A DNA stretch of 64,000 nucleotides from an uncultured Dehalococcoidales bacterium (GTDB lineage: Bacteria > Chloroflexota > Dehalococcoidia > GIF9 > UBA5629), in NCBI GenBank assembly GCA_964554375.1, contig CAZKOL010000002.1, positions 14,476 to 78,475 on the forward strand, given 5' to 3'. Within the stretch, counting starts at the first letter, position 1, and each line of letters opens with the position of its first letter. Shown here piece after piece: positions 1,208 to 50,052 of this stretch. A program made the translations under genes and the position numbers. A model generated the notes under the pieces. It made no database searches. It saw only the letters and a list, made by a program, of their open reading frames with translations, and was not told where the DNA came from.

Positions 1208-2131
1208 TTACTTTTTCTTGAGATGCAGCAGTTCCCTGGCCTCTTCAACGGTAGCGATTTCGAAATCCAGCTCGCGGGCGATCCTGACCGCTTTTTCAAC
1301 CAGTTCAGCGTTGGATTTGGCCAGCTCGCCGTGCGAAATATAAATGTTGTCTTCGAGGCCGACCCGGACGCTGTCGGCGCCCAAAAGCATGGCCATTGTG
1401 ATCATGGGGAACTCGTCCTTTCCGATGCCCAGGGCCTGCCACTTGGCATTGGGGAACATCTTCTTGCCCTCTTCGGAGATATACATAAGCTGTTTGGCCG
1501 TAGCGGGCTGGCCGCCTGAAACGCCCAGCGGGTAATCGATGTGGAAAGCCATATTTTTGTCGAACACCCCTTCTTCACACAGCGCCATGGTATTGTAAAG
1601 GTGGCTGACGTCCCAGATCTCCAGTTCCATGCCCCAGCCCCGTTCCAGGATGCCCTTGATAATCTTTCTCTGGAAGGGTGGGGTATTGCTGAAAGTGGAA
1701 AAACCGTACTTACCGATCGACATATCAAACGTGCCCATATTGAGCGTGAGCATATCCGGTTCGGGTTTGATGTCCAGCAGTGCCAGCTTCTGCTCTTCGG
1801 ATGCCGGGATGATCTGCCATGTAGTCGTATCAACCCATGCGCCGATGCCGCCACCGGCCTCGATTACAATCGGGCACTTCTCCCGTATACGTGCCACAAC
1901 GTCGCCCCAGACCTTGATATCAGGAGTGGCCAGCATGTGTATGGGGTCCCTGGCATGGATATGGCACAGGCTCGCTCCCGCGTTATAAGAACGAAGCGCC
2001 TCCTCTGCCACCTCTTCAGGTGTGATCGGCAGGTAAGGTGTCCTTTTGCCGAGGTTGGGAAGGTTTGGTGTGTTTTCATGTAGAGTGTTTGAACCGAACG
2101 GTGCTACCTGGATGATCAGTTTCTTGGCCAT
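1208..2131 (-). CDS. Beta-keto acid cleavage enzyme (BKACE/DUF849, Kce family)
   Basis: LPITPEEVAEEA, HIHARD metal motif, VRVGLEDN; start reset to ATG 2131 behind an AGGAGG RBS. Confidence 0.9.
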   Translation of the reverse strand: MAKKLIIQVAPFGSNTLHENTPNLPNLGKRTPYLPITPEEVAEEALRSYNAGASLCHIHARDPIHMLATPDIKVWGDVVARIREKCPIVIEAGGGIGAWVDTTTWQIIPASEEQKLALLDIKPEPDMLTLNMGTFDMSIGKYGFSTFSNTPPFQRKIIKGILERGWGMELEIWDVSHLYNTMALCEEGVFDKNMAFHIDYPLGVSGGQPATAKQLMYISEEGKKMFPNAKWQALGIGKDEFPMITMAMLLGADSVRVGLEDNIYISHGELAKSNAELVEKAVRIARELDFEIATVEEARELLHLKKK

Positions 2132-2162
2132 GTGTTGTAGTACCTCCTTAATGCATAAAATG

Positions 2163-3197
2163 TTATTTAATATAAGCCGTAATGCTCTGGAATTCTTTGA
2201 GGTTCTCCAAGGAGGGTTTCCTTTTCCCTTCCTCAATTTCCTTTATCAATTTAGTCACCATCTCGTTGGCAGGCGTTTTCAGCCCTACCTCTTTGCCCTT
2301 CCTGACCACGTAGCCGTTGACGAAATCCACTTCGGTCTTGCGTCCTTTTTCGATATCCTGCCACATCGAGGGCTTGGTGGCCTTATGGTTGGCGAACGCG
2401 ATCTCCATTAATTTGGACGCCTTTTCGAAGTCTTCCCTGTTGCGCACCAGGACGATGGATGGCGACACGCCCATCAGGTCGGCGAACTTGACCCCTGCCT
2501 TTATGCCGACGTCATAGGTCTCGGTGATCACAGTGAGCGCTACCTCGCGGGCAGCCTCGTTTTCAATCAGACCGCCATACGTCAGTCCGGCCGTTGTACC
2601 AACACCGGTAAGTGAGGCTGTGATGAGGAGCTTGGTCCAGCGGTCCCCGATGATATTGTCGGCAACCTCGGTGGTGAAGGCTTTGGAGAGCAGTGCGGCA
2701 GTCTCTTCCACTATTATGCTTTTGCCTGTCGGCCACTGCCCGATAATAAATCCGCCGTCTGTGGTCTGCATGAGCTGGCCGGGGCCCTTATTAGTACTAC
2801 CCCAGGTTATGCTGCACGCGATGGTGCGTTCAACACCGACGATTTTAGAGATGGTCTCCTCGTTGATGCCGTTTTGCAGCGAGACCACAGGTGCAGTCTT
2901 GGACATCACTGGCAGCACTGATTTGAGCGCATTTTCCGTATGCAGACCCTTCACTGCCAGCAGGACGATATCAGCCCATCCTGCGTTGTCCTTGCCGCCG
3001 AATTCGGCGGGCAGCATGGCCTTGACCGGGATCAATAGTCGCCTGAAGCCGCTTATCTCCAGGCCGCTGTTCATTCGTTTAACGTGCTCTTTATCGGCGT
3101 CCAGCACGATCACGTTCAGGCCCTGCTTTGTCAGCAGCGCTGCGGTGATGCCGCCGATGGCGCCGCCGCCGACCACTAAAATATTATTGAATCCCAT
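2163..3197 (-). CDS. Ketopantoate reductase (PanE/ApbA) family oxidoreductase
   Basis: GGGAIGG, LAVKG, SLQNG, W-x-KL, SMWQD..GRKTEVDFVNG motifs. Confidence 0.88.
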   Translation of the reverse strand: MGFNNILVVGGGAIGGITAALLTKQGLNVIVLDADKEHVKRMNSGLEISGFRRLLIPVKAMLPAEFGGKDNAGWADIVLLAVKGLHTENALKSVLPVMSKTAPVVSLQNGINEETISKIVGVERTIACSITWGSTNKGPGQLMQTTDGGFIIGQWPTGKSIIVEETAALLSKAFTTEVADNIIGDRWTKLLITASLTGVGTTAGLTYGGLIENEAAREVALTVITETYDVGIKAGVKFADLMGVSPSIVLVRNREDFEKASKLMEIAFANHKATKPSMWQDIEKGRKTEVDFVNGYVVRKGKEVGLKTPANEMVTKLIKEIEEGKRKPSLENLKEFQSITAYIK

Positions 3198-4155
3198 GGG
3201 TGTGTGTACCTCCTTTTGTCCCCGCGGGACGGTTCATCACAATCTCCAGCAGTTGACGGTCGATCTCCTGCATCGTTTCATCACAGCTGCGCCCGGCGTA
3301 ATCATAGAATCCCCGGCCGGTCTTCATGCCGAAGTGGCCTGCTTGCACCAGTTCGCGGATGCGGGCGGCGCGCGGGTCGCTGTGGGCGTTGGGATCGAAG
3401 CTGATAATAGCCTGCCAGATGAGGTCCAACCCGATCAGGTCCATGGTCTTGAAAGGCCCCATCACGGACAGACGCGGGCCCAGGCCGCGTGTAAAGGCGA
3501 AGTCGATCGCCTCCAGGGTGGCCACTCCGCGTCCCAGGAAGTCCAGCGCCGCGGCCATAATGGCCATATTGAACGAGTTGACCAAATAGCCGGGAACGAC
3601 CTTGTCGCAAATGATGGCCTTTTTGCCGATGAGCTGTACCAGGTTTATGGTATCCGCGAATGTTTTATCCGATGTAGCGCTGCCGCGCGCCACTTCTACT
3701 ATCGGCATGACTTCCGGAGGATTGATAAAGTGCGCCAGGATGGTCCTGTCCTTGCGTGCGACCTTTTCGGCTATGCTGTCGATTGACAGGGTGGATGAGT
3801 TGCTGGAAATTATGGTGTGAGGGGAGCATACCTTTTCCAGGTCGGCGAACACGCGGCTTTTTACAGGTAACTCCTCTTTGACAGCCTCAATGATAAAATC
3901 GGCGTTTCCCGCGGCCTCCTCAAGAGATGTCGTTAGCTTGATGGCGGACGTAATGTCCTTCTGGCTGTGGCCGCTTCGGCCGTTCTTATCATTAAACAGA
4001 CCCGCCATAGACCGGAGGCTGGCCGCAGCGCGCTTGAGCGCAACGGGATCAATGTCTGCCAGCGTAACGGGTAAACCGTGGCGGGCGAAAGATACGGCGA
4101 TACCCGGGCCCATCACGCCCGCCCCGATAACAGCAATCCGCTTAATTCCGGGCAT
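3184..4155 (-). CDS. 3-hydroxyacyl-CoA dehydrogenase family protein
   Basis: GAGVMG, IIEAVKE, SNSS, HFINPP..VE, GPF..MDLIGLD, G.KTGRGFYDY; ATG 4155 follows GGAG. Confidence 0.88.
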   Translation of the reverse strand: MPGIKRIAVIGAGVMGPGIAVSFARHGLPVTLADIDPVALKRAAASLRSMAGLFNDKNGRSGHSQKDITSAIKLTTSLEEAAGNADFIIEAVKEELPVKSRVFADLEKVCSPHTIISSNSSTLSIDSIAEKVARKDRTILAHFINPPEVMPIVEVARGSATSDKTFADTINLVQLIGKKAIICDKVVPGYLVNSFNMAIMAAALDFLGRGVATLEAIDFAFTRGLGPRLSVMGPFKTMDLIGLDLIWQAIISFDPNAHSDPRAARIRELVQAGHFGMKTGRGFYDYAGRSCDETMQEIDRQLLEIVMNRPAGTKGGTHTHGIQ

Positions 4156-4186
4156 ATTTATTTGGCAACTCCATATCAAAGCCGGG

Positions 4187-5611
4187 CTACTGAAGCATTG
4201 CCGGCTTTACCTTCTTCCTGGCTTTTTGAATGTAGTAGAGGCCCAGTCCCACGATTATGGCGAGCATGAACAGTATTATGGGCCAGGTGACCTTCTGCAT
4301 CAACAGGAAGACGACCAGCAGCAGCATGAAGATCACATTCATCACGGCGGCGGTGATAGCCGCGAATGATACCAGGCCGGGTTTAAACTTGAATTGCGAT
4401 TGGCCGAACTCCTTGGGGTGAGTTTTATGCAGTCGTGCGGCCGCGATCAGGACCAGGGTGACCATCCACAGCATACCGAAGTTGAGCATCGCTCCATAGA
4501 TGCCGATGGTCTCACCGGCCAGCAGGAGTATGATCACGCTCAGCGCCCAGGGCAGTGTCAGTCCCCAGTGAGGCGTGCCCCAGCGCTTGTTGATATCGGC
4601 CATAAACCTGGGGAAAAAGCCGTCCTTGGCATAAGACATGGCGTAGCGGCCGGAGATTGTCATCACAGCGTGCACCGTGGAGATACAGGCCATCACGGCG
4701 CCACCGATGATGAAATAGTAGAACCAGAATGAATTGGCGCCGAAGATCAGTCTACATGCGGCGCCGAGGTCCTTGGATGCTGCAAGCTGTTCCCAGTTCA
4801 TGACGCCGATGGCGACAATCTCAACCAGCCAGGTGAGGGCAAAAGCGCCGATTATAGCGATGAGCAGACCTCTAGGTATGGTGACACCGGCTTTTTTCAC
4901 CTCGTCGCCCAGCTCGATGCCGAACAGCCCGCCGGCCAGCAGCGTGTAGCATATAGCCGCCGCCGCTACCAGGCCCACCGTCTGCCCCAGCGCGGGCGGC
5001 ATGGCGGGGAATTTCAGGTTACCCGTGAACATGTTCGAGAAGTTGGACCAGTCTATCTGGGGGAAGCCCCCGAAGATGAATGCCAGCAGGGCGGAGATCA
5101 GAAGGAATACCATGCCGAACTGCACCCAGGCGGAGGGCTTGATGCCCACGATGTTGATGATATAGAAGAGGGTGATGGTGATAATAGCGATCAGCACAAC
5201 CCACGATATGCCCAGGCCGGGCACCAGCGCGGGCGCGTCCGGGAACAGCATCATGATGAAGCGGCCGTTGGTGATGGCGAAAAGGGGCAGGCCGCCCAGC
5301 GGCATGGCCACCAGCAGCACCATCACGCCCGCCACCGCCATGGGGTAAGAGGCGAGCTTGCCGTATTGATAGCTGGCCGCCGACTTGGGCGCGATGGACG
5401 TCAGCAGCATGTACGGTATGATGGCGAGGAATACTGGCAGTGCACAGATGATCTGTGCGATGATGAGCGACGGCCCGGTCAGGCCTGCGGCGACCGTGGT
5501 CAGCGTGAACAGGGCGCCGCCGACGTTCAGGCCTATCATGAGGAAGATCAGCAGTATTAACGTGAGCTCCTTTCTGAGGGTACCCTGGGCTGGCTGCGTT
5601 GCTTCTGTCAT
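4187..5611 (-). CDS. APC-family amino acid permease
   Basis: LRKEL N-terminus, about 12 TM helices, GDEVKK, R..YAKDG.FP, GTPHW motifs. Confidence 0.88.
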   Translation of the reverse strand: MTEATQPAQGTLRKELTLILLIFLMIGLNVGGALFTLTTVAAGLTGPSLIIAQIICALPVFLAIIPYMLLTSIAPKSAASYQYGKLASYPMAVAGVMVLLVAMPLGGLPLFAITNGRFIMMLFPDAPALVPGLGISWVVLIAIITITLFYIINIVGIKPSAWVQFGMVFLLISALLAFIFGGFPQIDWSNFSNMFTGNLKFPAMPPALGQTVGLVAAAAICYTLLAGGLFGIELGDEVKKAGVTIPRGLLIAIIGAFALTWLVEIVAIGVMNWEQLAASKDLGAACRLIFGANSFWFYYFIIGGAVMACISTVHAVMTISGRYAMSYAKDGFFPRFMADINKRWGTPHWGLTLPWALSVIILLLAGETIGIYGAMLNFGMLWMVTLVLIAAARLHKTHPKEFGQSQFKFKPGLVSFAAITAAVMNVIFMLLLVVFLLMQKVTWPIILFMLAIIVGLGLYYIQKARKKVKPAMLQ

Positions 5612-5668
5612 CCCTATCTTCTCCTAACAGTTTTATTTGTATGCGCCAGAATCCGTTGGAATTAAGGC

Positions 5669-5696
5669 ATTATACAATTTCCGCTCCCCCTGTCAA
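5669..5696 (-). promoter_or_regulatory. Sigma70-type promoter for the permease-BKACE operon
   Basis: TTGACA-N16-TATAAT on the minus strand, about 60 bp upstream of the ATG at 5611. Confidence 0.7.
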
Positions 5697-5725
5697 CAGG
5701 CTATTAGAACCCGCCTGCCGATACA

Positions 5726-7069
5726 CTATCTGTAAATACTGAAAGCCGTCTCGAAAGCAGCACGGCTTTTCTGTATGTCTTTCTCGGTCATTACGCCCGA
5801 CATGTATACGTGGCCGGGCAGCAGCACCACGCCCGGGTTGCTCAAGAGCAGCGCCAGCCTGATCATAAGGTCGAATTCGAAGACTTCCATCGCCTGGCTC
5901 ATATCGAACTTACCGTTCAGCCCGAAGTGTACGATGCTGTAGATGGCATGGGCCGAGACGTCCATCTTCAGGCCGGCTGCCACTTCGTTGATGACCTTGG
6001 CCAGGTCTGCCGCGCGGGCGATGGAGTTCTGGATGTAGTCACCTTTCTCAAGCTCCTCGATGAAGGCGATGCCGGCCGCCATGGCCAGCGGGTGGGCGCA
6101 GAATGAGCCCATGGGAAAGAGCGGTCCGAAATGCTCGGCCCTGGGGTCCAGTGCGCCGACCACCGACATCACATCCTCCCGTCCACCCACCGCCCCGATG
6201 GGCATGCCGCCGCCGACCGGTTTGCCCAGGCAGGTGAGGTCGGGCGTTATGCCCAGAGCCTGCTGCGCGCCGCCGATGGCCACCCTGAAGCTGGTAGCCA
6301 CCTCGTCAAAGGCCAGCAGTACATTGTACTTAGTGGTGAGATCGCGCAACTGCTTCTGGAAGCCCTCGTTGAGAGGCGCTCCTCCAGAGGAAGCTCCCAA
6401 CGGCTCCAGCACTACAGCCGCCACCTGGTCTTTATTGTCCTGCAGCGCCTTTTCCACGATCCCGATATCGTTGGGCGGCAGGTTGATCAGGTTGTCCCAG
6501 TGGTTATTGGGTATGCCCAGTGTAAAGAGGGTGCCGGAGCCGGCCGCCAGCGCATCGTAAGACAGCACGCCGTTCCAGCCGTGATGGTGACCGGCGAACT
6601 TGATGATCTTGTTTTTGCCGGTGAAAGCCCGGGCGATCTGGCAGACCAGTTCGGTGGCCTCGTTGCCGGAGTTGACTATTTTGATCTTTTTGATTGAGGG
6701 GTAATGCTGCATGACTTTCTGCGCCCACCTGGTGGCCAGTTCCTCGCACATCTCCAGGTGGAAGCCGTATTTATCCAGGGCCTTGTCGATGGCCTTGCGG
6801 ATGGCCGGCGCCTTGTGGCCGATATAGGAGATGCCCTGGTCGATGAACATGTCGATGTACTCGTTGCCGTCCACATCGTAAAGCTTAGAACCTCTGGCAT
6901 TGTCGATAAACAGGGGGTAGGGCCTGTGCCAGATCATGTAGGCGGGAGCGCCCATGGGCACTATGTATTTGCTCGATTCCTCGATGAGCTTTTTGGATTT
7001 GGGTGTCTTCTTCTCGTAAGCGGCTACAACTTCCCGGTACTTCTCCTCGCTAAGTTTGGGTATGCTCAT
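5726..7069 (-). CDS. Class III PLP aminotransferase (GSA-aminomutase-like)
   Basis: DVDGNEYID, NSGNEAT, FDEVATSFR, PDLTCLGKPVGGG (PLP Lys); start reset to ATG 7069 after GGAGG. Confidence 0.88.
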   Translation of the reverse strand: MSIPKLSEEKYREVVAAYEKKTPKSKKLIEESSKYIVPMGAPAYMIWHRPYPLFIDNARGSKLYDVDGNEYIDMFIDQGISYIGHKAPAIRKAIDKALDKYGFHLEMCEELATRWAQKVMQHYPSIKKIKIVNSGNEATELVCQIARAFTGKNKIIKFAGHHHGWNGVLSYDALAAGSGTLFTLGIPNNHWDNLINLPPNDIGIVEKALQDNKDQVAAVVLEPLGASSGGAPLNEGFQKQLRDLTTKYNVLLAFDEVATSFRVAIGGAQQALGITPDLTCLGKPVGGGMPIGAVGGREDVMSVVGALDPRAEHFGPLFPMGSFCAHPLAMAAGIAFIEELEKGDYIQNSIARAADLAKVINEVAAGLKMDVSAHAIYSIVHFGLNGKFDMSQAMEVFEFDLMIRLALLLSNPGVVLLPGHVYMSGVMTEKDIQKSRAAFETAFSIYR

Positions 7070-7252
7070 TTTCACCTCCCCTTCGCCCGCCCGGCCCGCT
7101 GGCCTTACAAGCGGCGGACGCCGTATTTTAAAACACCGTGTTACAAAAAACAACATTTTTGTATAAATTGTTTAACCCCGGCTTCGGTGTCCATATTGTA
7201 CTGCTCTTGTGACTGCGATATACTTACCATAACGAGCAGCATGGGAAGACCG

Positions 7253-8041
7253 ATGGATAAAAGTGTTAAAAAACGGGTAAACTACGGCGCGCAGAAGGTT
7301 GGCGAACGCTGGCTGACCGACCTGCTCAAGAAGGTGCAGTCGGGTGACCTGTCCCTGCAGGACGCAGTTAAGCAATTGAGCGTTCTGCCCTACGAGGATA
7401 TGGTACATGCTAAGCTCGACCACCACCGCAGCCTGCGCACGGGCTTTCCCGAGGTGATCTTTGGACCGGGCAAGACGACGGAGCAGATGGTCGGTATAGC
7501 GGTGCGCATGGCGTCGCATTCGGGCAGGGTGCTGATCACACGCGTCGATATCGATGTATTTAGAGCGGTAAGGAAGAGACTGCCGGATGCCGTTTATAAT
7601 GCGGATGCCCGCGCAATCACCATAGACCGCACAATAAAAAAGGCGGGGAAAGCGGGTATTACTATAGTAACTGGTGGTACAGCAGATATACCCGTGGCCG
7701 AGGAGGCGGCTGTCACGGTCGAGCTGATGGGCAACAGGGTTGAGCGCATTTTCGACGTTGGGGTGGCCGGCATCCACCGCCTGTTCGACCACCTGGAGCA
7801 GCTCAGGAGCGCTAAAGTAATCATTGCCGTGGCCGGCATGGACGGTGTGCTGCCGGCAGTGCTGGGCGGGCTTGTGACCTGTCCGGTTATAGCTGTACCC
7901 ACCAGCGTCGGCTACGGGGCCAATTTTAAGGGAGTTGCGCCCTTGCTGACCATGCTCAACAGCTGTGCGCCGGGCGTGGCCGTGGTCAATATCGATGGAG
8001 GGTTTAATGCAGGCTATCTGGCCGGCCTGATCAACAGATAA
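7253..8041 (+). CDS. larB: Nickel-pincer cofactor biosynthesis protein LarB
   Basis: DHHRSLRTGFPEVIFG, GTADIPVAEEA, DVGVAG, PTSVGYG, LNSCAPG; start uncertain (7241 or 7253). Confidence 0.93.
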   Translation: MDKSVKKRVNYGAQKVGERWLTDLLKKVQSGDLSLQDAVKQLSVLPYEDMVHAKLDHHRSLRTGFPEVIFGPGKTTEQMVGIAVRMASHSGRVLITRVDIDVFRAVRKRLPDAVYNADARAITIDRTIKKAGKAGITIVTGGTADIPVAEEAAVTVELMGNRVERIFDVGVAGIHRLFDHLEQLRSAKVIIAVAGMDGVLPAVLGGLVTCPVIAVPTSVGYGANFKGVAPLLTMLNSCAPGVAVVNIDGGFNAGYLAGLINR

Positions 8042-8043
8042 AA

Positions 8044-8862
8044 ATGCGCAAGCTGGGTGTTAAAAGCAGGACAGCCGATAAGGCGAGCCACCTGGAAAAC
8101 ATAATAGGCAGGATGAATTCCGCCATCGTGGCATATTCGGGTGGTGTGGACAGCACATTCCTTTCCGTAACGGCCACGGACATATTGAAGGACAATGCGC
8201 TGATGGTGCTGGCCAGGTCGCCACTGATGGAGGCTGAGGAATTCGAGGCGGCCAGGAAGCTGGCTGTTGATCTCAAGCTGAAGCTGATGGAGATAGAGTT
8301 CAACCAGCTCGATATACCGGATTTTGCCATCAACACCAGGGATCGTTGCTATCATTGCAAGCTGAACATGCTGGGGATATTAAATGAGGCCGCCCGTGTC
8401 AGGCATATTAAATATGTCTGCGACGGCACCAACTACGACGACCTGAGCGATTACCGGCCGGGTCTGATGGCCATCGCTGAACTGGGTGTGCGCAGCCCAC
8501 TGGCAGAATCGTTTTTAACCAAGAAAGAGATCAGAGCTCTTGCCAGGGCAATCGGGCTGCCGAACTGGCATAAGCCGGCTATGTCCTGCCTGGCCACCAG
8601 GATACCGCACCGGACGCCCATCACGCACGAGGTGCTGGAGAAGGTATCCTCGGGCGAGGCCTTTATCAGGGGGTTGGGGATTGAACATGTCAGGCTGAGG
8701 CACCATCATGATACAGCCAGGATCGAGGTTGATGAGAAAGGGTTCAAGGAGCTCTTTAAAAAGGGCAACCGGCAGGCTGCTGTCGAGGCGATAAAAAAGC
8801 TCGGCTACAATCATGTCACCGTCGATTTGGCGGGCTATCAGATGGGAAGCATGAGCAGGTGA
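8044..8862 (+). CDS. larE: ATP-dependent sulfur transferase LarE
   Basis: SGGVDS PP-loop, RCYHCK, DYRPG, SCLATRIP. Confidence 0.93.
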   Translation: MRKLGVKSRTADKASHLENIIGRMNSAIVAYSGGVDSTFLSVTATDILKDNALMVLARSPLMEAEEFEAARKLAVDLKLKLMEIEFNQLDIPDFAINTRDRCYHCKLNMLGILNEAARVRHIKYVCDGTNYDDLSDYRPGLMAIAELGVRSPLAESFLTKKEIRALARAIGLPNWHKPAMSCLATRIPHRTPITHEVLEKVSSGEAFIRGLGIEHVRLRHHHDTARIEVDEKGFKELFKKGNRQAAVEAIKKLGYNHVTVDLAGYQMGSMSR

Positions 8863-8876
8863 TTTAGAGGATTCGG

Positions 8877-10070
8877 ATGGGGAAAACGGCCTATTTCGAC
8901 CTTTTTGCCGGCTGCAGCGGTGATATGATACTCGGGGCACTGCTGGATGCCGGCCTGTCCCTGACAGAACTTGAGAAGGAACTGGGCAGGCTGCCGCTGA
9001 TGGGCTACAGAGTTACGGCCGAAAAGGTCAAGCGGGGAGCCTTGAGAGCAACACGGGCACGGGTGATACCCGATGATAAGGTCAAACAGCCCGACCGCTC
9101 CTATGGCGATATCGTAGAGCTGGTAGCGGGCAGCCGGCTTTCGGACGAAGTGAAAAAGCGCGCGCTGGATATATTCCGCAACCTGGGTGAGGTCGAGGCT
9201 AAAATCCACGGAGTCAAGATGGAGCTGGTGCACTTTCACGAGATCGGGGCCGTGGATTCCATCGTGGATATCGTGGGGGCAGTTATCGGCTTCGACCTGA
9301 TGGGGATAACGCAATTTTTCGCATCCTCTTTCCCGGCGGCTGTGGGCTCCGTAGAGTGTCGCCACGGCGCCCTGCCGTTGCCGGCGCCGGCAACACTGGA
9401 ATTAATAGCCTGCAAACAGGCGCCTGTTGTCGGTCCTTGCCATGCGGCCATGAATGGCAGGGAACTGGTAACGCCGACCGGCGCCGCCATCGTGACCACG
9501 CTGGCTGATTTCCGCACTCCTCATCTGAACGTGGAAAAGATCGGCTACGGTGCGGGCAGTATGAATGCCGATGAGTATCCCAACGTCATGCGCCTGTGGA
9601 TAGGGCGGGCGCCCGATCTCGACGGCCACGAGGGTATGGTGCTTCTGGAGACAAACATCGATGATATGAATCCGCAGATCTACGACTATGTAATGGAAAG
9701 GCTATTCGCGCAGGGCGCGCTGGATGTCTGGTTTACACATATTCAGATGAAGAAAAACCGTCCCGCCGTTATGCTGAGCGTACTGGCCCCTGGTGATCTT
9801 GAATCGAGGCTGGCGGAGACCATCATGCGTGAGACCTCCACGCTGGGGATACGTGTACGCCACGTCTTCCGCCATATCGCCGGCCGCGATATCGTCGAGT
9901 TTAAGTCAAGCTACGGAAAGGTCAGTGTCAAGGTCAAGCGCTTCGAGGACGAGATAATCAGTATCGCGCCGGAATACGAAGAATGCAAGAAGATTGCCGC
10001 TGAAAAGGCCATCCCGCTGAGGGATGTTTATCGGACGATCGAGGCCGAGTCTCGCAAGCTGATTAAGTAG
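8877..10070 (+). CDS. larC: Nickel insertion protein LarC
   Basis: GCSGDM.LGAL, HFHEIGAVDSIVD, ELVTPTGAA, ETNIDD, MKKNRP, PEYEEC. Confidence 0.93.
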   Translation: MGKTAYFDLFAGCSGDMILGALLDAGLSLTELEKELGRLPLMGYRVTAEKVKRGALRATRARVIPDDKVKQPDRSYGDIVELVAGSRLSDEVKKRALDIFRNLGEVEAKIHGVKMELVHFHEIGAVDSIVDIVGAVIGFDLMGITQFFASSFPAAVGSVECRHGALPLPAPATLELIACKQAPVVGPCHAAMNGRELVTPTGAAIVTTLADFRTPHLNVEKIGYGAGSMNADEYPNVMRLWIGRAPDLDGHEGMVLLETNIDDMNPQIYDYVMERLFAQGALDVWFTHIQMKKNRPAVMLSVLAPGDLESRLAETIMRETSTLGIRVRHVFRHIAGRDIVEFKSSYGKVSVKVKRFEDEIISIAPEYEECKKIAAEKAIPLRDVYRTIEAESRKLIK

Positions 10071-14579: not shown

Positions 14580-14594
14580 TGATCCTGAAGCGAT

Positions 14595-16800: not shown

Positions 16801-16802
16801 TT

Positions 16803-21078: not shown

Positions 21079-21081
21079 ATA

Positions 21082-25438: not shown

Positions 25439-25459
25439 TCTATCTCTCCTTCAATATAA

Positions 25460-38809: not shown

Positions 38810-38817
38810 TGTAGATC

Positions 38818-43232: not shown

Positions 43233-43997
43233 TCATGCCACTTCCTCAGCGATATCAGCCGTGATTCTCTCGCGCAGGGCTATAAATACATTGTCAGTCA
43301 GACGCCGCGGGTAGCTCAGGTTCACAGGATAAATGCTTTTTACTGCGCCGGGGCCGGATTTCATGACTACAACTCTTTCAGCAAGGTAAACTGCCTCTTC
43401 CACGCTGTGCGTGACGAAAACAATGGTTTTTCTGTCCACATTCCAGATGCCGAGCAGATCTTTCTGCATAAGGTAGCGTGTCTGAGCATCGAGGGAACCG
43501 AAAGGCTCGTCCATCAGCAGCACTTCCGGATCATTGGCCAGAGCCCGTGCGATAGCCACCCGCTGCTTCATACCGCCGGAAAGCTCGGACGGGTACTTGT
43601 GGCCGCTGCCTGAAAGTCCAACCAGTTCGATGCAGCGTTCGGCGGTCCGCAGGCGTTCTGCCAGAGGTACTTTTAGCACCTCCGGGCCGAATACCACGTT
43701 GCCCGTCACGTCCCTCCAGGGGAACAGCGCGAAATCCTGGAAGACCAGTCCTCTATCCGGACCAGGCGCTATCACCGGCTTCCCGTCGATGTAGATAGCC
43801 CCCGAGCTGGCATGTTCAAGGCCGGCAACGAGTTTAAGTAGTGTGGTCTTGCCGCAGCCGGAGGATCCTACCAGGCAAACGAATTCACCGTCGCCTATTG
43901 ACAGGTTGAAATCGCGCAGGGCTACGGTGGAGGCGCCGCCCCTTTTTTCCATGAAGGTCTTGCTGACGCCGTCGATGATAAGCTTCCGACCGCTCAT
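43233..43997 (-). CDS. NitT/TauT family ABC transporter ATP-binding protein
   Basis: GSSGCGKT, VFQDFALFPW, LSGGMKQR, MDEPFGSLD. Confidence 0.92.
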   Translation of the reverse strand: MSGRKLIIDGVSKTFMEKRGGASTVALRDFNLSIGDGEFVCLVGSSGCGKTTLLKLVAGLEHASSGAIYIDGKPVIAPGPDRGLVFQDFALFPWRDVTGNVVFGPEVLKVPLAERLRTAERCIELVGLSGSGHKYPSELSGGMKQRVAIARALANDPEVLLMDEPFGSLDAQTRYLMQKDLLGIWNVDRKTIVFVTHSVEEAVYLAERVVVMKSGPGAVKSIYPVNLSYPRRLTDNVFIALRERITADIAEEVA

Positions 43998-44722
43998 GCT
44001 GCCTTCCAGAAAAGAATTTTATCCTCGAGCTTTTTGAGGCCGATAAACATAAGGTAACCTGCGATGCCGATCATAAGCATGCCTGCCACGGTCTTGGATG
44101 CCTCCATAGTGGAGTAATAATACATTATCATGTAACCGAGGCCGGAGTTGGAGCCGGTCAATTCAGCCGCTACAAGGCACATCCATCCTATTCCGATGCC
44201 GATTCGCAGGCCCGCCATGATCGAAGGGGCAGCCGATGGTACGCCAACCTTAATCAGTATCTGCCAGGGGCCTGCGCCAAGTGTTTTGGCCACCTCTATC
44301 AGCTTGGGCGGAGTGTTCTCCATGCCAAGTACTGTATTGAGCAGGATGGGGAAAAAGGCGCCCAGCCAGATGAGAAAGACCGCCGGCTTAAAGCCAAGTC
44401 CAAACCATAGCATGGACAGGGGTATCCATGCCAGGGGCGGGATGGGGCGCAATATCTCAATGACGGGCTCAAGCAGGTCACGCGCATTTCGCCACCAGCC
44501 GATGATGATGCCGAGAAAAACACCGGTGACGGCCGCCAGGGCAAAACCGGCGAGCACCCTCCACAGGCTGATAAGTGTGTTGCCCATCAGCTCTCCCGCC
44601 CATGCCATCCCGGGCGGGCCGGGCGCGGCCAGCAGCTGACCCAGTGCGACGATGACGGAAACGGGAGTGGGGAAAAGCTGAGGCAGATTGGACAGGAGGG
44701 CTGCACCCTCCCAGATCAGCAA
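43994..44722 (-). CDS. NitT/TauT family ABC permease (SsuC/TauC-like)
   Basis: LRPIPPLAWIP, EVAKTLGA, LVAAEL...GLGY; start uncertain. Confidence 0.9.
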   Translation of the reverse strand: MLIWEGAALLSNLPQLFPTPVSVIVALGQLLAAPGPPGMAWAGELMGNTLISLWRVLAGFALAAVTGVFLGIIIGWWRNARDLLEPVIEILRPIPPLAWIPLSMLWFGLGFKPAVFLIWLGAFFPILLNTVLGMENTPPKLIEVAKTLGAGPWQILIKVGVPSAAPSIMAGLRIGIGIGWMCLVAAELTGSNSGLGYMIMYYYSTMEASKTVAGMLMIGIAGYLMFIGLKKLEDKILFWKAA

Positions 44723-44762: not shown

Positions 44763-45761
44763 TCACCTCTGGAGGTATTTGGTATCCACCACCGTATCGA
44801 CGAACGTGTCTAAATCCGGTACATCACTGGCTGTTATGATGGGCTTGATAGCCCCTTTTTCACCGAGGCTGATGATCTCACTGACGAACCTCTTAATATC
44901 GTCCCTGCTAAGAGAATAGGTGTACTTAACACGCCCGAAGGCGTTGTCAATGATGGCGGGATCCAGCCTGGTCCATTTGCCGGCGATGGCTTTGGCCTCG
45001 GCTGGATTAGCCTCTATAAAATCAATAGCCCTGCGGTGTGCGCGTATTACGGACGCAACGGTGCTCTCATGGGAACGGACGAAATCACCTCCGGTTACGA
45101 TCACGCAACAAGGATGACCGGGCCAGATGTCCTTTGATTCTACCAGTACTTTGCCGTACCCGCCCACCACGGACCTGGCCACAAAGGGCTCCCAGACAAA
45201 GTACCCGTTAATGCGTCCCGTCTGCAGAGACTGCGGCATGTCCGGGGGTTTGACCGTGCCGGGGAAAAGCTCGATGTCGTTATAACCTAAATTATTGCCT
45301 GCCAGCAGCATCCCGAACATCACATATTGGATAGATCCGGGTGCTGGGGTGGCTATCTTTTTCGATTTCAGTTCGGCAACGCTATTGATATCCATGCCGG
45401 TTACCAGGCCTGATCCTTCCAGGTTGACGCCTGATACGATGGAAAGCGGGATCTTGCGAGCCGCCGCCAGCATGGCCGGCGCCACACCGACATAGCCCAT
45501 ATCTATCTGGTTGGCTGCCAGCGCATCCATCTCTGCAGGACCGGCATCAAATGGTCCCACCACTTCCACATTCAGCCCCTCCTCAAGAAAAAAACCCCTG
45601 TCCTGCGCCACAAAAAACGGCAGATGGTGAAGGTCGCCCAGAAGGTAACCGATACGTACCGTCGAAGGCGCCATAGGTGCGCACCCTGACAGGCTGCCAA
45701 TCGAGGTGAACACCAGCGACGCCAGGATAAAACTTGTCAGAAGCTTAAATATAAGGTTCAT
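44763..45761 (-). CDS. NitT/TauT family substrate-binding lipoprotein (SsuA/TauA/NrtA-like)
   Basis: Lipobox LSGC, VRIGYL...HHLP, WEPF, WPGHPCC. Confidence 0.88.
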   Translation of the reverse strand: MNLIFKLLTSFILASLVFTSIGSLSGCAPMAPSTVRIGYLLGDLHHLPFFVAQDRGFFLEEGLNVEVVGPFDAGPAEMDALAANQIDMGYVGVAPAMLAAARKIPLSIVSGVNLEGSGLVTGMDINSVAELKSKKIATPAPGSIQYVMFGMLLAGNNLGYNDIELFPGTVKPPDMPQSLQTGRINGYFVWEPFVARSVVGGYGKVLVESKDIWPGHPCCVIVTGGDFVRSHESTVASVIRAHRRAIDFIEANPAEAKAIAGKWTRLDPAIIDNAFGRVKYTYSLSRDDIKRFVSEIISLGEKGAIKPIITASDVPDLDTFVDTVVDTKYLQR

Positions 45762-45811
45762 CTAATACCCCTGATTCAGCAAATTATACCAGCAACAAGG
45801 CGGTTGATTAA

Positions 45812-45836
45812 ATTATACAATATTTGTATAATTTGT
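45812..45836. promoter_or_regulatory. Palindromic element ATTATACA-N5-TGTATAAT(TTGT), copy 2
   Basis: In the ABC/larA-like divergent intergenic region; 24/25 identical to 26733-26757. Confidence 0.7.
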
Positions 45837-45960
45837 CTAATGCCAGATGTATGGATCAATTGGTTTGGTTTGGTGGTATTGCTGTGATATCATGAGGCCG
45901 CCTTTGAATCTGATCAGTAGATTAATCGCGATCTGTCTTAATCATTAAAGGAGGATACCG

Positions 45961-47415
45961 GTGAGTAATAAAATCATCCAGGCAGATTATTGGGACAGGA
46001 AGATAGATATCGAGGTGCCGGAAGAGACGGTGATCGGGGAGATCCCCAATCCTACGGTTCTGCAGGACCCAGAAAAAGCCATACGGGAGGCTATTGCAAA
46101 GCCCATCGGCGCTCCTCCCCTGGCCGAACTGGCCAAAAAGGCGCGCAACGGCAAAGTCACTATCGGTTTTGACGACCCTTCGCGGCCCGGGAAGCCAAGG
46201 CAGATGATCATCCCCATTCTCATAGAAGAGCTGCTTAAGGCCGGTGTACGGGAGGAAAACATATATCTGCTCTCCGGCAGCGGCAATCACTGCAAATGGA
46301 CCGCCCCGCAGTTAAGGGCTTACCTGGGCCCGGCCATCTATGACAGGTTTGCCCCGGCCGGCAGTGCCTCGAGGGTGCTAAACCATGATTGCCATGATCC
46401 GGAGAACCTTGTATATATGGGCACATCTTCCCTGGGCGATTATGTTGAGTATAACCGGGCGCTGGAAGATTCCGAGCTTTTTATTTATACGGGGACCGTT
46501 GTGGTTTCGAACTGGGGAGGCATGACGGGGACCGGCGTCATAATCGGTTTTCCCAGCACGCGCAGCATGACCTCAACACACGGTTTTCCGGTGGTTGGCC
46601 ATCCTGATTCCTGCCACGCAAATCAGCATACCATGATGTATCGTTCTCACAAGGAAGCAATCATGGCCCAGATTGAAAAATATACCGGAAAGCGCGTATT
46701 TTACGTGGATGTTGTCCCCAGCGCCGGGGGAGCCCCGGCGGGTGTATTCGCCGGTTATTCACCCGAGATTAACACGCCCACCTGGAAATTTGCCGAAAGT
46801 GTCTATCATATGGAGGTGCCCCAGGCTGATGTGCTTATTTACGGCGTGCCCCGCTACTCGCTGTACGGCGAGACCAGCAATCCACTGATAGCGCTCGCCG
46901 CAGCATGTGCCCCCGTACGCATGTGGGTCAACAAGCCCGTGTTGAGGGAGGGTGGAGTAGTCATAGCCCTGGCACACTGCGACGGGACCATAGACGAGAG
47001 GTCGCATCCTTCATATGCAGAAATACTCGACCTTTACCGGAACTGTTTTTCCATGCAGGAACTGTCTATTTACCAGGAGGAGTTTATGCACCGCGAGGAC
47101 CTCATCTTTAAATACAGGCACGCCTATGCATATGCGCCGGTGCACGGCTTCTGGCTGATGTATGAGAGTGAGTATGCGCTAAACCATGCCAATAAAATCA
47201 TCATGGCCGGCGTGCCGGGCATGGACAATCCCCTGGCGCAGGTGCAGGTCAGCGGTACCGGAGGGCCCGGCTCGGTGCGCGACGTCGGCTGCACGCCTGC
47301 CAGGAATTTCGCTGACGCAATGAAAATTGCCGAAAAATTCGTCGGTAAGAATCCCCGGGTCATGGCCTGTCCGTCTTTCTGGACCAGAGTCAGGCCCAGG
47401 TTTTACGTAAAGTAA
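45961..47415 (+). CDS. LarA-family (DUF2088) nickel-pincer-dependent enzyme, divergent
   Basis: AIAKPIGAPPL, DDPSRP, GNH, NHDC.D, VLREGGVVI..A.C; AAAGGAGG RBS; larBEC present in the window. Confidence 0.8.
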   Translation: MSNKIIQADYWDRKIDIEVPEETVIGEIPNPTVLQDPEKAIREAIAKPIGAPPLAELAKKARNGKVTIGFDDPSRPGKPRQMIIPILIEELLKAGVREENIYLLSGSGNHCKWTAPQLRAYLGPAIYDRFAPAGSASRVLNHDCHDPENLVYMGTSSLGDYVEYNRALEDSELFIYTGTVVVSNWGGMTGTGVIIGFPSTRSMTSTHGFPVVGHPDSCHANQHTMMYRSHKEAIMAQIEKYTGKRVFYVDVVPSAGGAPAGVFAGYSPEINTPTWKFAESVYHMEVPQADVLIYGVPRYSLYGETSNPLIALAAACAPVRMWVNKPVLREGGVVIALAHCDGTIDERSHPSYAEILDLYRNCFSMQELSIYQEEFMHREDLIFKYRHAYAYAPVHGFWLMYESEYALNHANKIIMAGVPGMDNPLAQVQVSGTGGPGSVRDVGCTPARNFADAMKIAEKFVGKNPRVMACPSFWTRVRPRFYVK

Positions 47416-47453: not shown

Positions 47454-47669
47454 ATGCGTCTACAATCTTATCAGGGCGAACTTAAGGACCACCTGCAATA
47501 CCTGGGAATCTGGGACAACCTGGTTGCCGGCAAGCTCAAATGCTTTGTCTGCAAAGTTAAGCTGAGCGCTGACAACTTCGGGCTGGCTTTCCGCAATTTC
47601 GAGAAGATAGAGACAACCTGTAACAGGCTTGACTGTATACGTACGGTTACGCACGTATTAAAAGACTGA
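47454..47669 (+). CDS. Small hypothetical protein with CxxC...Cx4C
   Basis: AGGAGG RBS; CFVC and CNRLDC; in-operon position. Confidence 0.65.
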   Translation: MRLQSYQGELKDHLQYLGIWDNLVAGKLKCFVCKVKLSADNFGLAFRNFEKIETTCNRLDCIRTVTHVLKD

Positions 47670-47701: not shown

Positions 47702-49198
47702 ATGACAACTTTTTACGATAGCCGAAGGCCGTATGACAATTATGATTCAACCACCCGGGAATGGGACGCCATTTTTATCGGCGGCGGAGCTTCAGGAAGG
47801 TTCGGTTCCTCGTACTTCCGCGCCATGGGCGGCAACCAGCTTACCATCGAGGCCGATAACCACCTGGGCGGCAAATGCTGCAAGAACGCCTGCGTGTTGC
47901 ATCACTATCTTTACGAGATAGCCGTTGAGTTGGACAAGGCGCGGATCTGGGATAAAAAAGAATACTGGCCCAAGTTCCCCAGGAAAAACGGGAAAGTCGA
48001 AATACTACCCGTCCTGAGAGATTACCATATCGGCCGCGAATATGTATTTGATTTCATGTTCCACCAGAGTAAAGAACAGCTTAAACTTCAGTTCATGTTA
48101 AACCAACGGGCCTCGGTGCTTGATCCTCATACTGTATCAGTACAGGGCAAGGGAGAGTTTAAGACAAAGAACATCATTGTAGCGGCTGGCGCCGGGCCCT
48201 CTGTTCCACCCGTGCCCGGCGCCAATCTTAAAGGCGTATATACCTATGCGGACTTTCTCGAGCTTGATTACGAGCCGAAAGATGTAGTGGTGGTAGGCGC
48301 TTCCAAGAGCGGGCTGCCCTGGGCATGTTTTTTCAACGCTGTCGGTTGTAACACTACCGTAGTCGAGATGATGCCCGCCCTCAGCCAGTTCCCCATTGAC
48401 GATGATGTGCGGGAATACACGCTACGCATGATGAAACTCAGGGGATTGCCGGTGCTGGACGAAACCACATTGGTCTCCATCAACGGTACCGGCTCGGTCA
48501 AGTCGGTGACGGTAAAGGGAAAAGACGGTGTAGAGAAGATGATTAAAGCTGACCTGGTCTACCTGGGAACAGGGTGCACACCTCGCTCGGATATAGTTAC
48601 GTCGATCGGGGTAAAGACGGGTCCTAAAAAAGAGATAATCATTGACAAGTATATGGCGACCAACACACCCGGGGTATACGCCTGCGGCGATATCACGGGA
48701 GGGGTCATGGAGATGTGGAAGGCCAGGCAGGGTGGCATGATGGCGGCCAAGAACATACTTGGCTCACCGGCTGAATTTGAGACTGATCTGTTTGCTGATA
48801 CGGTGCACACATTCTATGAGACTACCTGGGTCGGAATGACGGAGAAAGAGGCCAGGGAGAAGGTCGGGAAGGTCTTTGTGGTCAGGATGCCGATTCAGGG
48901 CTATAAGAACTGGCTGCCCCTGCCTCTGGCTGAGGGAACAATGGAGTATGCCCAACAGTGGCCGGACCTTTCCGGGTTCCAAAAGATTATCTACGATGCC
49001 AGGACCCGTAAGTTCCTGGGTGCTCAGCATGTTGGCTACGGGGGCAAGGACTCATTCCAGTACCTGCTTTACATGCTCAAGAAGGGCGCGACCATCGACG
49101 AGATAGCCAATCTGACTGAGCTCTTCATCAACCCGACGCATTATATCCAGCTTTCACGGTTGCGCTCGGGTATGGAGAATCTTGTAGACCTGGGTTAG
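47702..49198 (+). CDS. Homologue of 2-ketopropyl-CoM oxidoreductase/carboxylase (FAD disulfide oxidoreductase family)
   Basis: DAIFIGGG.SGRFGS.Y.RAMGG, GG.C..NAC..HH, QSKEQL, MEM.KAR, SGFQKI, HVGYG.KD.FQYL and ELF.NPTH.IQLSRLR match Xanthobacter 2-KPCC (XecC) as remembered. Confidence 0.85.
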   Translation: MTTFYDSRRPYDNYDSTTREWDAIFIGGGASGRFGSSYFRAMGGNQLTIEADNHLGGKCCKNACVLHHYLYEIAVELDKARIWDKKEYWPKFPRKNGKVEILPVLRDYHIGREYVFDFMFHQSKEQLKLQFMLNQRASVLDPHTVSVQGKGEFKTKNIIVAAGAGPSVPPVPGANLKGVYTYADFLELDYEPKDVVVVGASKSGLPWACFFNAVGCNTTVVEMMPALSQFPIDDDVREYTLRMMKLRGLPVLDETTLVSINGTGSVKSVTVKGKDGVEKMIKADLVYLGTGCTPRSDIVTSIGVKTGPKKEIIIDKYMATNTPGVYACGDITGGVMEMWKARQGGMMAAKNILGSPAEFETDLFADTVHTFYETTWVGMTEKEAREKVGKVFVVRMPIQGYKNWLPLPLAEGTMEYAQQWPDLSGFQKIIYDARTRKFLGAQHVGYGGKDSFQYLLYMLKKGATIDEIANLTELFINPTHYIQLSRLRSGMENLVDLG

Positions 49199-49224: not shown

Positions 49225-50052
49225 ATGAAGTTTAAAGAGTATACGGGGAAAATTGCCTTTATCGCGGGTGGATCGAGCGGCATAGGTCTGGCCTGTGCAG
49301 AATTGCTGGCCGCCAGGGGCGCCGAGGTGGTGATCTTCGCCCGGGGCCAGGAGCAACTTGACAGTGCGTTGCAGGAAATTGAACGGAACAGAGTATTTGA
49401 AAAACAGCGTTTCCTGGCTGTCCAGCTTGATGTATCACAACGCGCACAGGCTGAAAATCTGCTTAAAAAGACGGCTGTGGATTTCGGCAGCCCGGACATT
49501 CTCATAAATAGCGCCGGCACTTCGTATCCTCAGCGATTCGAAGATATATCCTATGCCAAATTCGATGAAATTGTTCGGGTAAATCTGAACGGGACCTGGA
49601 ACGTTGTTTCCATCCTGTTGCCTTATATGAAAGAGCGGGGTGGCGCTATTGTTAACGTGTCCTCAGTTGCCGGCTATATCGGGGTTTTCGGCATGACCGC
49701 TTACAGCGCGTCCAAATTCGCGGTGATTGGTTTCTCCGAGGCATTAAGGAGTGAATTGAAGCGGTTCAATATCACCGTCTCCGTGCTGTGCCCGCCGGAC
49801 GTTGATACTCCTATGCTTGCGAGAGCAGAAAAGATCAAGCCTGAGGAAACTAAGGCCATCTCAGCAACGGCCAGGGTCATGAAAGCGGAGGAGGTGGCAA
49901 AGGCGGTAATCGATGCTCTGGCAAAGGGGGGGTTCTTGATTCTGCCCAGCTCCAACGTCAGGTTCACATACAATATGAAAAGGCTGTTTCCCTGGCTGGT
50001 CGAGTCGATAACTGACAACCAGATAAGTAAGTTCCAGAAAAGGGCTGCCTGA
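49225..50052 (+). CDS. Short-chain dehydrogenase/reductase
   Basis: GGSSGIG, NSAG, VSS, YSASK, PPDVDT. Confidence 0.9.
   Translation: MKFKEYTGKIAFIAGGSSGIGLACAELLAARGAEVVIFARGQEQLDSALQEIERNRVFEKQRFLAVQLDVSQRAQAENLLKKTAVDFGSPDILINSAGTSYPQRFEDISYAKFDEIVRVNLNGTWNVVSILLPYMKERGGAIVNVSSVAGYIGVFGMTAYSASKFAVIGFSEALRSELKRFNITVSVLCPPDVDTPMLARAEKIKPEETKAISATARVMKAEEVAKAVIDALAKGGFLILPSSNVRFTYNMKRLFPWLVESITDNQISKFQKRAA

Follow-up and report, generated by a model that had tools for sequence, protein, structure and literature searches.

A 2-KPCC-family flavoprotein of the Lys61/NADH-type group encoded beside dsrMKJOP in an uncultured Dehalococcoidales bacterium

In this work, we consider a stretch of 64,000 nucleotides from the genome of an uncultured Dehalococcoidales bacterium (assembly GCA_964554375.1, contig CAZKOL010000002.1, positions 14,476 to 78,475), the whole of which is referred to here as the window, and within it the open reading frame (ORF) 47702–49198. 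An earlier note on this DNA had described the product of this ORF (P0001) as a coenzyme M (CoM)-recognizing reductase, related to 2-KPCC, the 2-ketopropyl-CoM oxidoreductase/carboxylase of Xanthobacter, but with a different reaction. The canonical enzyme, a flavoenzyme that cleaves CoM thioethers with fixation of CO2, is known in the aerobic metabolism of alkenes and epoxides. The ORF, henceforth the KPCC-like gene, has an AGGAG ribosome-binding site 8–12 nt on its 5' side and is single-copy in the host genome.

Family membership of the KPCC-like gene product

P0001 contains Pyr_redox_2 (E 9.7e-43) and Pyr_redox_dim (E 1.9e-15) domains, and a phmmer search against PDB sequences returns Xanthobacter 2-KPCC (1mo9_A) as its top match (E 1.1e-126, 426.7 bits), with residues 14–497 paired to residues 37–523 of 1mo9_A at ~45% identity over the full length. 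The first PDB match outside 2-KPCC is a dihydrolipoyl dehydrogenase, at E 1.1e-27. The best NCBIfam model, TIGR01350 (dihydrolipoyl dehydrogenase), gives 181.3 bits against a cut-off of 408.8, and none of the 25 best NCBIfam models listed for P0001 reaches its own cut-off. The names that JGI gives to close cluster representatives are dihydrolipoamide dehydrogenase or E3 component; together with the rank of TIGR01350, this bears out the expectation that annotation pipelines would call the protein dihydrolipoamide dehydrogenase.

We also obtained an AlphaFold (AF2) monomer model of P0001 from 15 group sequences, with a predicted local distance difference test score (pLDDT) of 81.5 and a predicted TM score (pTM) of 0.84, in which residues 474–498, the segment that holds Phe475 and His480, lie below pLDDT 50, such that the geometry there is not readable. 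A Foldseek search with this model, a comparison that the earlier note had itself suggested, places the 2-KPCC chains 7mgo, 7mgn and 1mo9 on top (E 1e-53 to 5e-52, TM 0.85–0.86), with E3 enzymes appearing only from E 5e-35. When 1.84 billion cluster representatives are searched exhaustively, the scores run from 1105 bits (the protein's own cluster) through 422 bits (canonical 2-KPCC) to 301 and 252 bits, the other full-length matches listed reach at most 165 bits, and 60 proteins are found at E <= 1e-30, which shows the family to be compact. By fold and by core residues, P0001 is a member of the 2-KPCC family and not an E3, and in its His pair, its NADPH site and its operon it departs from the characterized 2-KPCC.

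Active-site residues and the Lys61 group

In the HMMER alignment to 1mo9, Arg33 and Arg342 of P0001 correspond to Arg56 (in GRFG) and Arg365 (in KAR), the two residues which we take to hold the CoM sulfonate in 2-KPCC. Cys59, Cys60, Lys61 and Cys64 align with Cys82, Pro83, His84 and Cys87 (CCKNAC vs CPHNAC), Phe116, Asp117 and Met119 with His137, Gly138 and Met140, and Phe475 and His480 with Phe501 and His506 (ELFINPTH vs ELFLNPTH). The residue pattern given in the earlier note is therefore recovered by alignment: the redox Cys pair is kept, both Arg residues are equivalent to those of 2-KPCC (and are predicted from this equivalence to bind a sulfonate), the Phe/His dyad stands in place of the HPTxxE motif of the disulfide oxidoreductases (DSOR), and the positions of His84 and His137 are taken by Lys and Phe. 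These two His residues of 2-KPCC lie near the substrate carbonyl, and stabilization of the enolate is the role assigned to them. In the Dehalococcoidia sub-lineage to which P0001 belongs, Phe116 is flanked by Tyr114 and His121. At the nucleotide site, Glu222 is located at the end of the second NAD(P) Rossmann strand (model strand 217–221), where P0001 has Glu-Met and 2-KPCC has Val-Arg; the acidic residue suggests a preference for NADH, as had also been proposed earlier, and is a signature of the whole group described below.

Taken together, P0001 and Xanthobacter 2-KPCC have in common the fold, the Cys pair, and the equivalents of Arg56/Arg365, Met140 and the Phe501/His506 dyad. The changes from 2-KPCC to P0001 comprise, in addition to His84 to Lys and His137 to Phe, also Gly138 to Asp, Asn141 to Phe, Trp75 to Asp, Phe77 to His and Ser81 to Lys, as well as the NADH-type Glu222/Met223 in place of Val/Arg, and P0001 is 25 residues shorter, its N-terminal part being the shorter one. 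With DSOR disulfide reductases such as glutathione reductase and dihydrolipoamide dehydrogenase, P0001 has in common the two-dinucleotide FAD/NAD(P) fold, the CxxxxC motif and the dimerization domain; unlike them, it lacks the His-Glu acid-base dyad, scores far below the family cut-offs, and possesses the sulfonate-binding Arg pair, which is found in the 2-KPCC family only.

A word-indexed search, in which 8000 candidates were scored, yielded 50 relatives at E <= 1e-40, and the corresponding 51-row alignment holds a group of 17 full-length rows (P0001–P0014 and P0017–P0019), here called the Lys61 group, and a canonical group of 30 rows. Lys61 and an acidic residue at position 222 are each present in all 17 rows of the former, none of which has the His pair, whereas all 30 canonical rows have His at both equivalent positions (61 and 116) and none has an acid at 222. 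Position 116 of the Lys61 group is Tyr in 9, Phe in 7 and Gln in 1 of the 17 rows, and the Arg at 223, present in 29/29 canonical rows compared, is replaced in 16/16 rows of the Lys61 group. Other elements are common to both groups: GRFG is found in all 48 rows that cover this stretch, the second Arg in 51/51 rows, and the dyad Phe in every row of either group, with the dyad His present in 19/19 Lys61-group rows (fragments included) and in 23/30 canonical rows. The redox Cys pair is present in 16 of the 17 full-length Lys61-group rows, the second Cys being absent from P0017. Nine positions have residue sets that are disjoint between the two groups, namely (Lys61 group/canonical group) 52 D/W, 54 H/F, 58 K/S, 61 K/H, 100 E/S, 117 D/A, 206 P/E, 223 M/R and 350 K/R, and four of these nine lie within the ten residues that end with the redox motif.

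A quick IQ-TREE search with outgroups included, and with SH-aLRT as the only support measure, recovers the canonical group as monophyletic (SH-aLRT 99) and places the Lys61 group either as sister to it or as a basal grade, P0019 falling outside; we therefore do not claim the Lys61 group as a clade in the strict sense. The outgroup sequences P0050, P0051 and P0053 (clade C) share the Arg pair and the Phe/His dyad and lack both residues of the His pair, and under this outgroup rooting the His pair looks derived in the canonical clade rather than lost in the Lys61 group. We note, as separate observations, that in clade C position 61 is neither His nor Lys and the Cys motif is another one, and that most metagenome relatives of the canonical clade (L038–L099) carry SCPH[QL]AC and ELFLNPEH, with Glu before the dyad His, by contrast with the SCPHNAC and NPTH of the Xanthobacter type; this large group may be a further functional variant.

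Gene neighborhood, host genome and operons of relatives

The features of the window that bear on the KPCC-like gene are collected in Table 1.

Table 1. Positions of the KPCC-like gene and of associated features in the window
Feature	Position	Strand	Basis
2-KPCC-family flavoprotein, Lys61/NADH-type group (P0001, 498 aa)	47702..49198	+	PDB 1mo9 E 1.1e-126
Nickel-pincer-nucleotide enzyme, LarA-like, nearest to the orphan LarA subfamily with a single His	45961..47415	+	Lar_N E 4.5e-34; PDB 9q2u E 1.3e-52
Conserved 71-aa ORF with four Cys (CxxC ... CxxxxC), between LarA-like and KPCC-like genes	47454..47669	+	AGGAGG upstream
Classical short-chain dehydrogenase/reductase (SDR), 26 nt 3' of the KPCC-like gene	49225..50052	+	adh_short E 1.1e-55
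Substrate-binding protein of the ABC importer (NMT1/SsuA/TauA type), encoded divergently to the LarA-like gene	44763..45761	-	SsuA_fam E 3.1e-42, below cut-off
ABC permease (TauC/SsuC/SaoP-like)	43994..44722	-	domain models
ABC ATPase (SaoA/TauB/nitrate type)	43233..43997	-	domain models
Divergent intergenic region between importer and LarA-like operon	45762..45960	.	promoter-like hexamers on both strands, 11/12 and 10/12 matches, weak
larB, larE, larC (nickel-pincer cofactor synthesis for the LarA-like enzyme)	6704..10070	+	domain models
Aminotransferase (class III), amino-acid permease, 3-hydroxyacyl-CoA-DH-like, ApbA/PanE-like reductase, BKACE	1208..7156	-	orthologues in L031
dsrAB	24374-26629		window annotation
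Glycyl-radical enzyme, 900 aa, beside dsrAB	26816-29518	+	closest to PFL2/glycerol-dehydratase class
dsrMKJOP	37655-42623		window annotation

The LarA-like protein is the only Lar_N protein of the host genome, and the features of the LarA superfamily are present, namely the Lar_N domain, the first catalytic His, and larB, larE and larC in the genome (LarB NF033503 290 bits, LarE TIGR00268 303 bits, larC Ni_insertion E 1.7e-132). Its best structural matches, at E 1.3e-52 and 9.4e-43, are LarA proteins of the single-His subfamily from Streptococcus plurextorum and Blautia wexlerae (9Q2U/9Q3K/9Q3J), and His115 of that subfamily is kept as His110. In the HMMER alignment to 9q2u, which is not structure-based, Lys195 (the covalent cofactor link) falls in a gap, and Asn185 stands against Ser-Asn of the window protein; a two-base racemase would require a second catalytic His. 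According to the available text of PMC12611868, the single-His subfamily has no second catalytic His and no known function, and its authors suggest a role in carbohydrate metabolism; glycolytic genes form the context described there, whereas the context here is one of sulfonates and thioethers. We note that the ORF listed for larB, 6704–8041 (+), overlaps the aminotransferase gene 5726–7156 (-) by ~450 nt, and that the LarB domain begins only at residue 238 of this ORF; the true larB gene probably begins well inside this ORF, which would leave room for a divergent promoter region.

The small four-Cys ORF between the two genes has full-length matches of 66–100% identity in 26 other loci (L001–L015, L026–L035 and L037) and, where L025 starts, a partial one, and no Pfam family is found for it. 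The SDR gene that follows the KPCC-like gene was considered as an orthologue of S-hydroxypropyl-CoM dehydrogenase (HPCDH) and rejected, as the S-HPCDH structure 4gh5 is not among its best 60 PDB matches listed. On the other side of the LarA-like gene, the best PDB matches of the substrate-binding protein are the taurine-binding TauA (6ssy, E 5e-13) and then SsuA (2x26, 1e-8). In the scan for promoters and terminators, the sites in the scanned region do not rise above those of shuffled sequences, and Rfam gives nothing in the window.

The KPCC-like operon is directly next to DsrMKJOP, with dsrAB at a distance of 21 kb. A small protein with an RsbRD_N domain, 42631–43134 (-), is encoded between dsrM and the importer, a position that is kept in the related loci that reach it (37–62% identity). 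The glycyl-radical enzyme beside dsrAB shows homology from about residue 300 onward, its ~300 N-terminal residues being without a match. Two assignments for it were rejected: the HpfG/HpsG models of the 2,3-dihydroxypropane-1-sulfonate (DHPS) enzymes score 427–429 bits against a cut-off of 1000, and the structure of the isethionate sulfite-lyase IslA matches at E 1.8e-100, compared to 4.6e-152 for Archaeoglobus PFL2. It is a candidate for a new sulfonate-cleaving glycyl-radical enzyme. The genes at 1208–7156 adjoin larBEC and may, tentatively, be linked to the KPCC-like operon. Elsewhere in the window, positions 10000–22000 are of lower G+C (0.44–0.48 vs 0.52–0.58 around) and contain genes for trehalose synthesis, for two Na+/H+ exchangers and for regulators of the TetR type. 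A Type ISP restriction-modification enzyme is encoded at 31672–34764 (-), and a protein with TackOD1 and Mrr_cat nuclease domains at 54335–55930 (+), 3' of a two-component system.

The host genome (2.16 Mb, 93.7% complete) gives no match to AprA and contains DsrAB and DsrMKJOP, and thus looks like that of an organism that respires sulfite (organosulfonate) and not like that of a sulfate reducer; it also gives no match to the Meth_synt_2/EaCoMT family, to ComA or to ComD. In this, and in having no HPCDH-like match, it is unlike the hosts of 2-KPCC. The 15 closest genome loci (84–94% identity) all come from metagenome-assembled genomes (MAGs) assigned to Dehalococcoidia, Dehalococcoidales, Chloroflexota or Chloroflexia. 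Among them, the LarA-like gene lies 5' of the KPCC-like gene in 13/13 loci that reach that far, the importer binding protein is present in 11/11 loci that reach it, and the SDR gene follows directly in 12/15, being absent from that position in L011, L012 and L014.

In an even sample of the class, the KPCC-like gene is present in only 2 of 301 genomes, compared to 19 of the 77 genomes of the family, and the LarA-like gene is found in exactly the same 19. DsrA occurs in 23/77 family genomes (17 of the 19 that are KPCC-positive and 6 of the 58 others), a BKACE orthologue in 21/77 (18 of the 19) and LarC in 27/77 (17 of the 19), counts that are not independent, as most positives belong to one genus, the genes lie on one island, and a lost contig removes them all. 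In one further genome of the same genus, the DsrA match (G326:C10:99387-100530) has four in-frame stops (2 TGA, 2 TAA), and the KPCC-like and LarA-like genes are retained, the LarA-like match being split in two; a decaying dsr locus or an assembly error are both possible.

Independent support for the link between LarA-like and KPCC-like genes is provided by the more distant locus L036, where a KPCC-like gene (50% identity, with Ala in place of the second redox Cys) lies between a clade-C paralogue (35% identical to P0001, with the motif CHVCRC) on one side and, on the other, a LarA-like orthologue (60%), after which come genes for a binding protein (36%) and a permease (51%). The tandem pair of clade-C and Lys61-type genes at L036 (2405–5574) may form a heterodimer with one active disulfide.

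The operons of relatives within the Lys61 group bear on the reaction. The proteins of L016 (a Candidatus Dadabacteria MAG), L023 and L024 are 60–63% identical to P0001, carry K61, Y116, D117, D222, W339, F475 and H480, and are like P0001 in Lys61, Asp117, acidic 222, Trp339 and the Phe/His dyad; unlike it, they have Pro60, Tyr116, Tyr120 and Tyr121. The gene order at these three loci is aldehyde dehydrogenase, two CoA-transferase subunits, ADP-forming acyl-CoA synthetase, SDR, MEDS regulator, MetE-like (EaCoMT-like), KPCC-like and SDR, with additional aminotransferase, cysteine/cysteate-synthase-like, second MetE-like and CoA-disulfide-reductase-like genes in L024. At 17 loci, counterparts of the MetE-like protein (45–59% identical) are encoded near canonical 2-KPCC genes, where counterparts of the SDRs and the CoA-transferase occur too. 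The downstream SDR of this type of operon has as its best PDB match 4gh5 (E 1.7e-62), which the available text of PMC12810213 identifies as S-hydroxypropyl-CoM dehydrogenase. The Lys/Tyr/NADH type of active site thus occurs in operons that are built from epoxide-carboxylase parts and that include a beta-keto-acid-activating enzyme. In L025, the KPCC-like gene is followed by a BKACE gene, for which 3,5-dioxohexanoate:acetyl-CoA acetone transferase is the best model (E 2.6e-95). At L031, the genes directly 3' of the KPCC-like gene, on the same strand, are those of an aminotransferase, a permease, an ApbA-like reductase and a BKACE; aminotransferase, ApbA and BKACE are 79%, 76% and 80% identical to their orthologues in the window.

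The context of P0001 differs from that of L016, L023 and L024, which have an EaCoMT-like gene, two HPCDH-like SDRs, a CoA-transferase and an acyl-CoA synthetase; in the window these are replaced by the LarA-like gene, the four-Cys ORF, a different SDR and the ABC importer. The pocket of the Dehalococcoidia sub-lineage (C60, Y114, F116, F120 and H121) also differs from that of the EaCoMT-linked members (P60, Y116, Y120 and Y121), such that the two substrates are probably not the same. Given both this difference and a genome with no match for EaCoMT or CoM synthesis, a substrate other than 2-ketopropyl-CoM is likely for the sub-lineage.

Proposed reaction and alternative explanations

From the family membership, residue pattern, group-wide conservation, gene linkage and genome content described above, we infer a substrate class, a carboxylation step, a use for NADH and roles for the neighboring genes. 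Our favored reading, for which the chances appear to us about even, is that P0001 is an FAD-containing, NADH-preferring sister enzyme of 2-KPCC that performs reductive C–S cleavage with carboxylation. The reduced Cys59/Cys64 pair would attack a 2-oxoalkyl thioether at its sulfur, and the remaining half of that thioether would be a 2-sulfoethyl (CoM-like) group gripped by Arg33 and Arg342. Phe475 would shield the departing enolate from protons, CO2 would capture it at the Arg342/His480 anion pocket to give a beta-keto acid, and NADH, via FAD, would re-reduce the disulfide. Lys61 would replace His84/His137 as polarizer of the enolate, helped by Tyr116 in most group members and possibly by Tyr114 or His121 in P0001. 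The thioether, or CoM itself, would be imported by the divergent TauA/SsuA-like ABC importer rather than synthesized, a view that we take because there is no Meth_synt_2, ComA or ComD match and because the importer is adjacent in 11/11 loci that reach it. The LarA-like nickel-pincer enzyme and the SDR would bring the imported compound to the keto level, and the beta-keto acid would be handed to a BKACE-type enzyme. The use of NADH would also balance an NAD-linked oxidation step.

As described in the available text of PMC8358701, the F501H variant of 2-KPCC gives 90% acetone, Phe501 blocks the access of protons, and CO2 is proposed to bind, and acetoacetate to form, in an anion pocket bordered by Arg365 and His506, such that both Phe501 and this pocket are tied to carboxylation. 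The equivalents of all three residues are kept in P0001. Because of these residues, and because of the relatives' operons and BKACE genes, we favor carboxylation over a different reaction. The description of P0001 as a CoM-recognizing reductase with a different reaction can therefore be followed in part: membership in the 2-KPCC family and the Arg pair stand, and the step from a replaced His pair to a non-carboxylating reaction is not supported by this evidence.

Such a non-carboxylating thioether reductase, in which the same Cys attack is followed by protonation of the carbanion (by Lys61 or His121) to give a ketone or aldehyde and a thiol sulfonate, is nevertheless the best of the alternatives, and we regard it as unlikely. 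It would account for the replacement of the His pair by the protonatable Lys61, invariant in 17/17 rows, and for a His121 specific to the Dehalococcoidia sub-lineage, and even 2-KPCC yields acetone when given a proton source, according to the available text of PMC8358701. It offers no obvious reason, however, for the strict retention of Phe475 and the His480/Arg342 pocket if protons are welcome, or for genes that handle beta-keto acids 3' of the KPCC-like genes of relatives.

The disulfide oxidoreductase scaffold and the retained CoM-binding Arg pair would also be compatible with an NADH-dependent reductase of CoM disulfide (or of a mixed CoM disulfide), by which imported CoM would be regenerated or set free, and the presence of a TauA/SsuA-like importer in a genome with no match for CoM synthesis points in the same direction. 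For such a reaction, however, an acid-base His would be expected to be needed, where P0001 has Phe, and neither the obligate pairing with the LarA-like gene nor the EaCoMT, SDR, CoA-transferase and BKACE contexts of the relatives would be explained; L024, moreover, has a separate CoA-disulfide-reductase-like gene. We thus hold this explanation to be quite improbable.

We consider it very improbable that P0001 is a reductive desulfonation enzyme, in which the Cys pair would cleave the C–S bond of a beta-keto sulfonate formed by the LarA-like enzyme or the SDR, and the sulfite released would pass to DsrAB. The idea draws on the location of the operon next to DsrMKJOP and 21 kb from dsrAB, on the lack of an AprA match in the host genome, such that sulfite must come from elsewhere, and on the presence of DsrA in 17/19 KPCC-positive compared to 6/58 other family genomes. 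This co-occurrence is confounded by linkage on one island, however, and relatives occur in Dadabacteria-type operons with no Dsr context within the loci examined. We also know of no precedent for thiolate attack on the sulfur of a sulfonate, and the Arg pair of 2-KPCC presumably lies one CoM length from the Cys, a spacing that suits a thioether but not direct attack on a sulfonate. Finally, an ordinary dihydrolipoamide dehydrogenase (E3), as the JGI names and the top rank of TIGR01350 would have it, deserves practically no credence, given 181 bits against a cut-off of 408.8, the absent His-Glu dyad, and a 2-KPCC match 100 orders of magnitude better than any E3.

Several points weigh against the carboxylating thioether cleavage that we favor. 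The equivalents of His84 and His137 are both absent, and Phe116 cannot form a hydrogen bond. The Phe475/His480 segment, on which the shielding of the enolate would depend, is below pLDDT 50 in the monomer model. The sub-lineage pocket is unlike that of the EaCoMT-linked members at positions 60, 114, 116, 120 and 121, and because of this the operon argument transfers only indirectly to P0001. No enzyme able to make a CoM thioether was found in the host genome, and we know of no natural source of CoM thioethers. The SDR is not HPCDH-like, and is not adjacent in 3/15 loci; the best scores of the substrate-binding protein, the specificity of which is a predicted one, are below curated cut-offs; and the co-occurrence is confounded by kinship as well as by linkage on one island. 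The closest subfamily of the LarA-like enzyme has neither a second catalytic His nor a known substrate, and a carbohydrate role has been suggested for it in the available text of PMC12611868.

Extending the carboxylating reading to the whole locus, we can envisage a scenario, rather unlikely to be correct as a whole, in which sulfite-respiring Dehalococcoidia of methanogenic sediments and peat scavenge CoM or CoM thioethers for an anaerobic, redox-balanced pathway that ends in sulfite for DsrAB. These compounds would be released by methanogens or alkane-oxidizing archaea and taken up by the dedicated ABC importer, the LarA-like enzyme and the SDR would convert hydroxyalkyl-CoM to the keto level, and the NADH-dependent 2-KPCC sister would cleave the C–S bond while fixing CO2. 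The freed sulfonate would ultimately yield sulfite for DsrAB, possibly via the glycyl-radical enzyme beside dsrAB.

With regard to what has been described before, the available text of PMC8358701 presents 2-KPCC as the only carboxylase of the disulfide oxidoreductase family. Our literature search returned no paper that ties 2-oxopropyl-CoM reductase to Chloroflexi, Dehalococcoidia or Dadabacteria, and no description of a 2-KPCC homologue group without the His pair, the papers found being on the canonical enzyme; the papers on organosulfonate respiration that it returned make no mention of mercaptoethanesulfonate. The setting, with the KPCC-like gene beside DsrMKJOP, an importer, a LarA-like gene and a four-Cys ORF, is the new part.

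As the Lys61 group shows, the His pair is not a constant of the 2-KPCC family, and this group, with its Lys plus Tyr, its NADH-type site and its members in strict anaerobes whose genomes gave no CoM-synthesis match, provides natural variants with which to consider enolate stabilization and proton exclusion. The pairing with the LarA-like gene gives an orphan subfamily a concrete lead, in the form of hydroxy-thioether or hydroxy-sulfonate substrates. If the whole scenario were true, the single-His LarA subfamily would gain its first physiological role, and a CoM-dependent carboxylase would for the first time be known from outside the aerobic metabolism of alkenes and epoxides. For the organism itself, the finding points to an unrecognized organosulfur substrate for sulfite-respiring Dehalococcoidia, and the gene setting hints at an unrecognized anaerobic use of CoM-like compounds.

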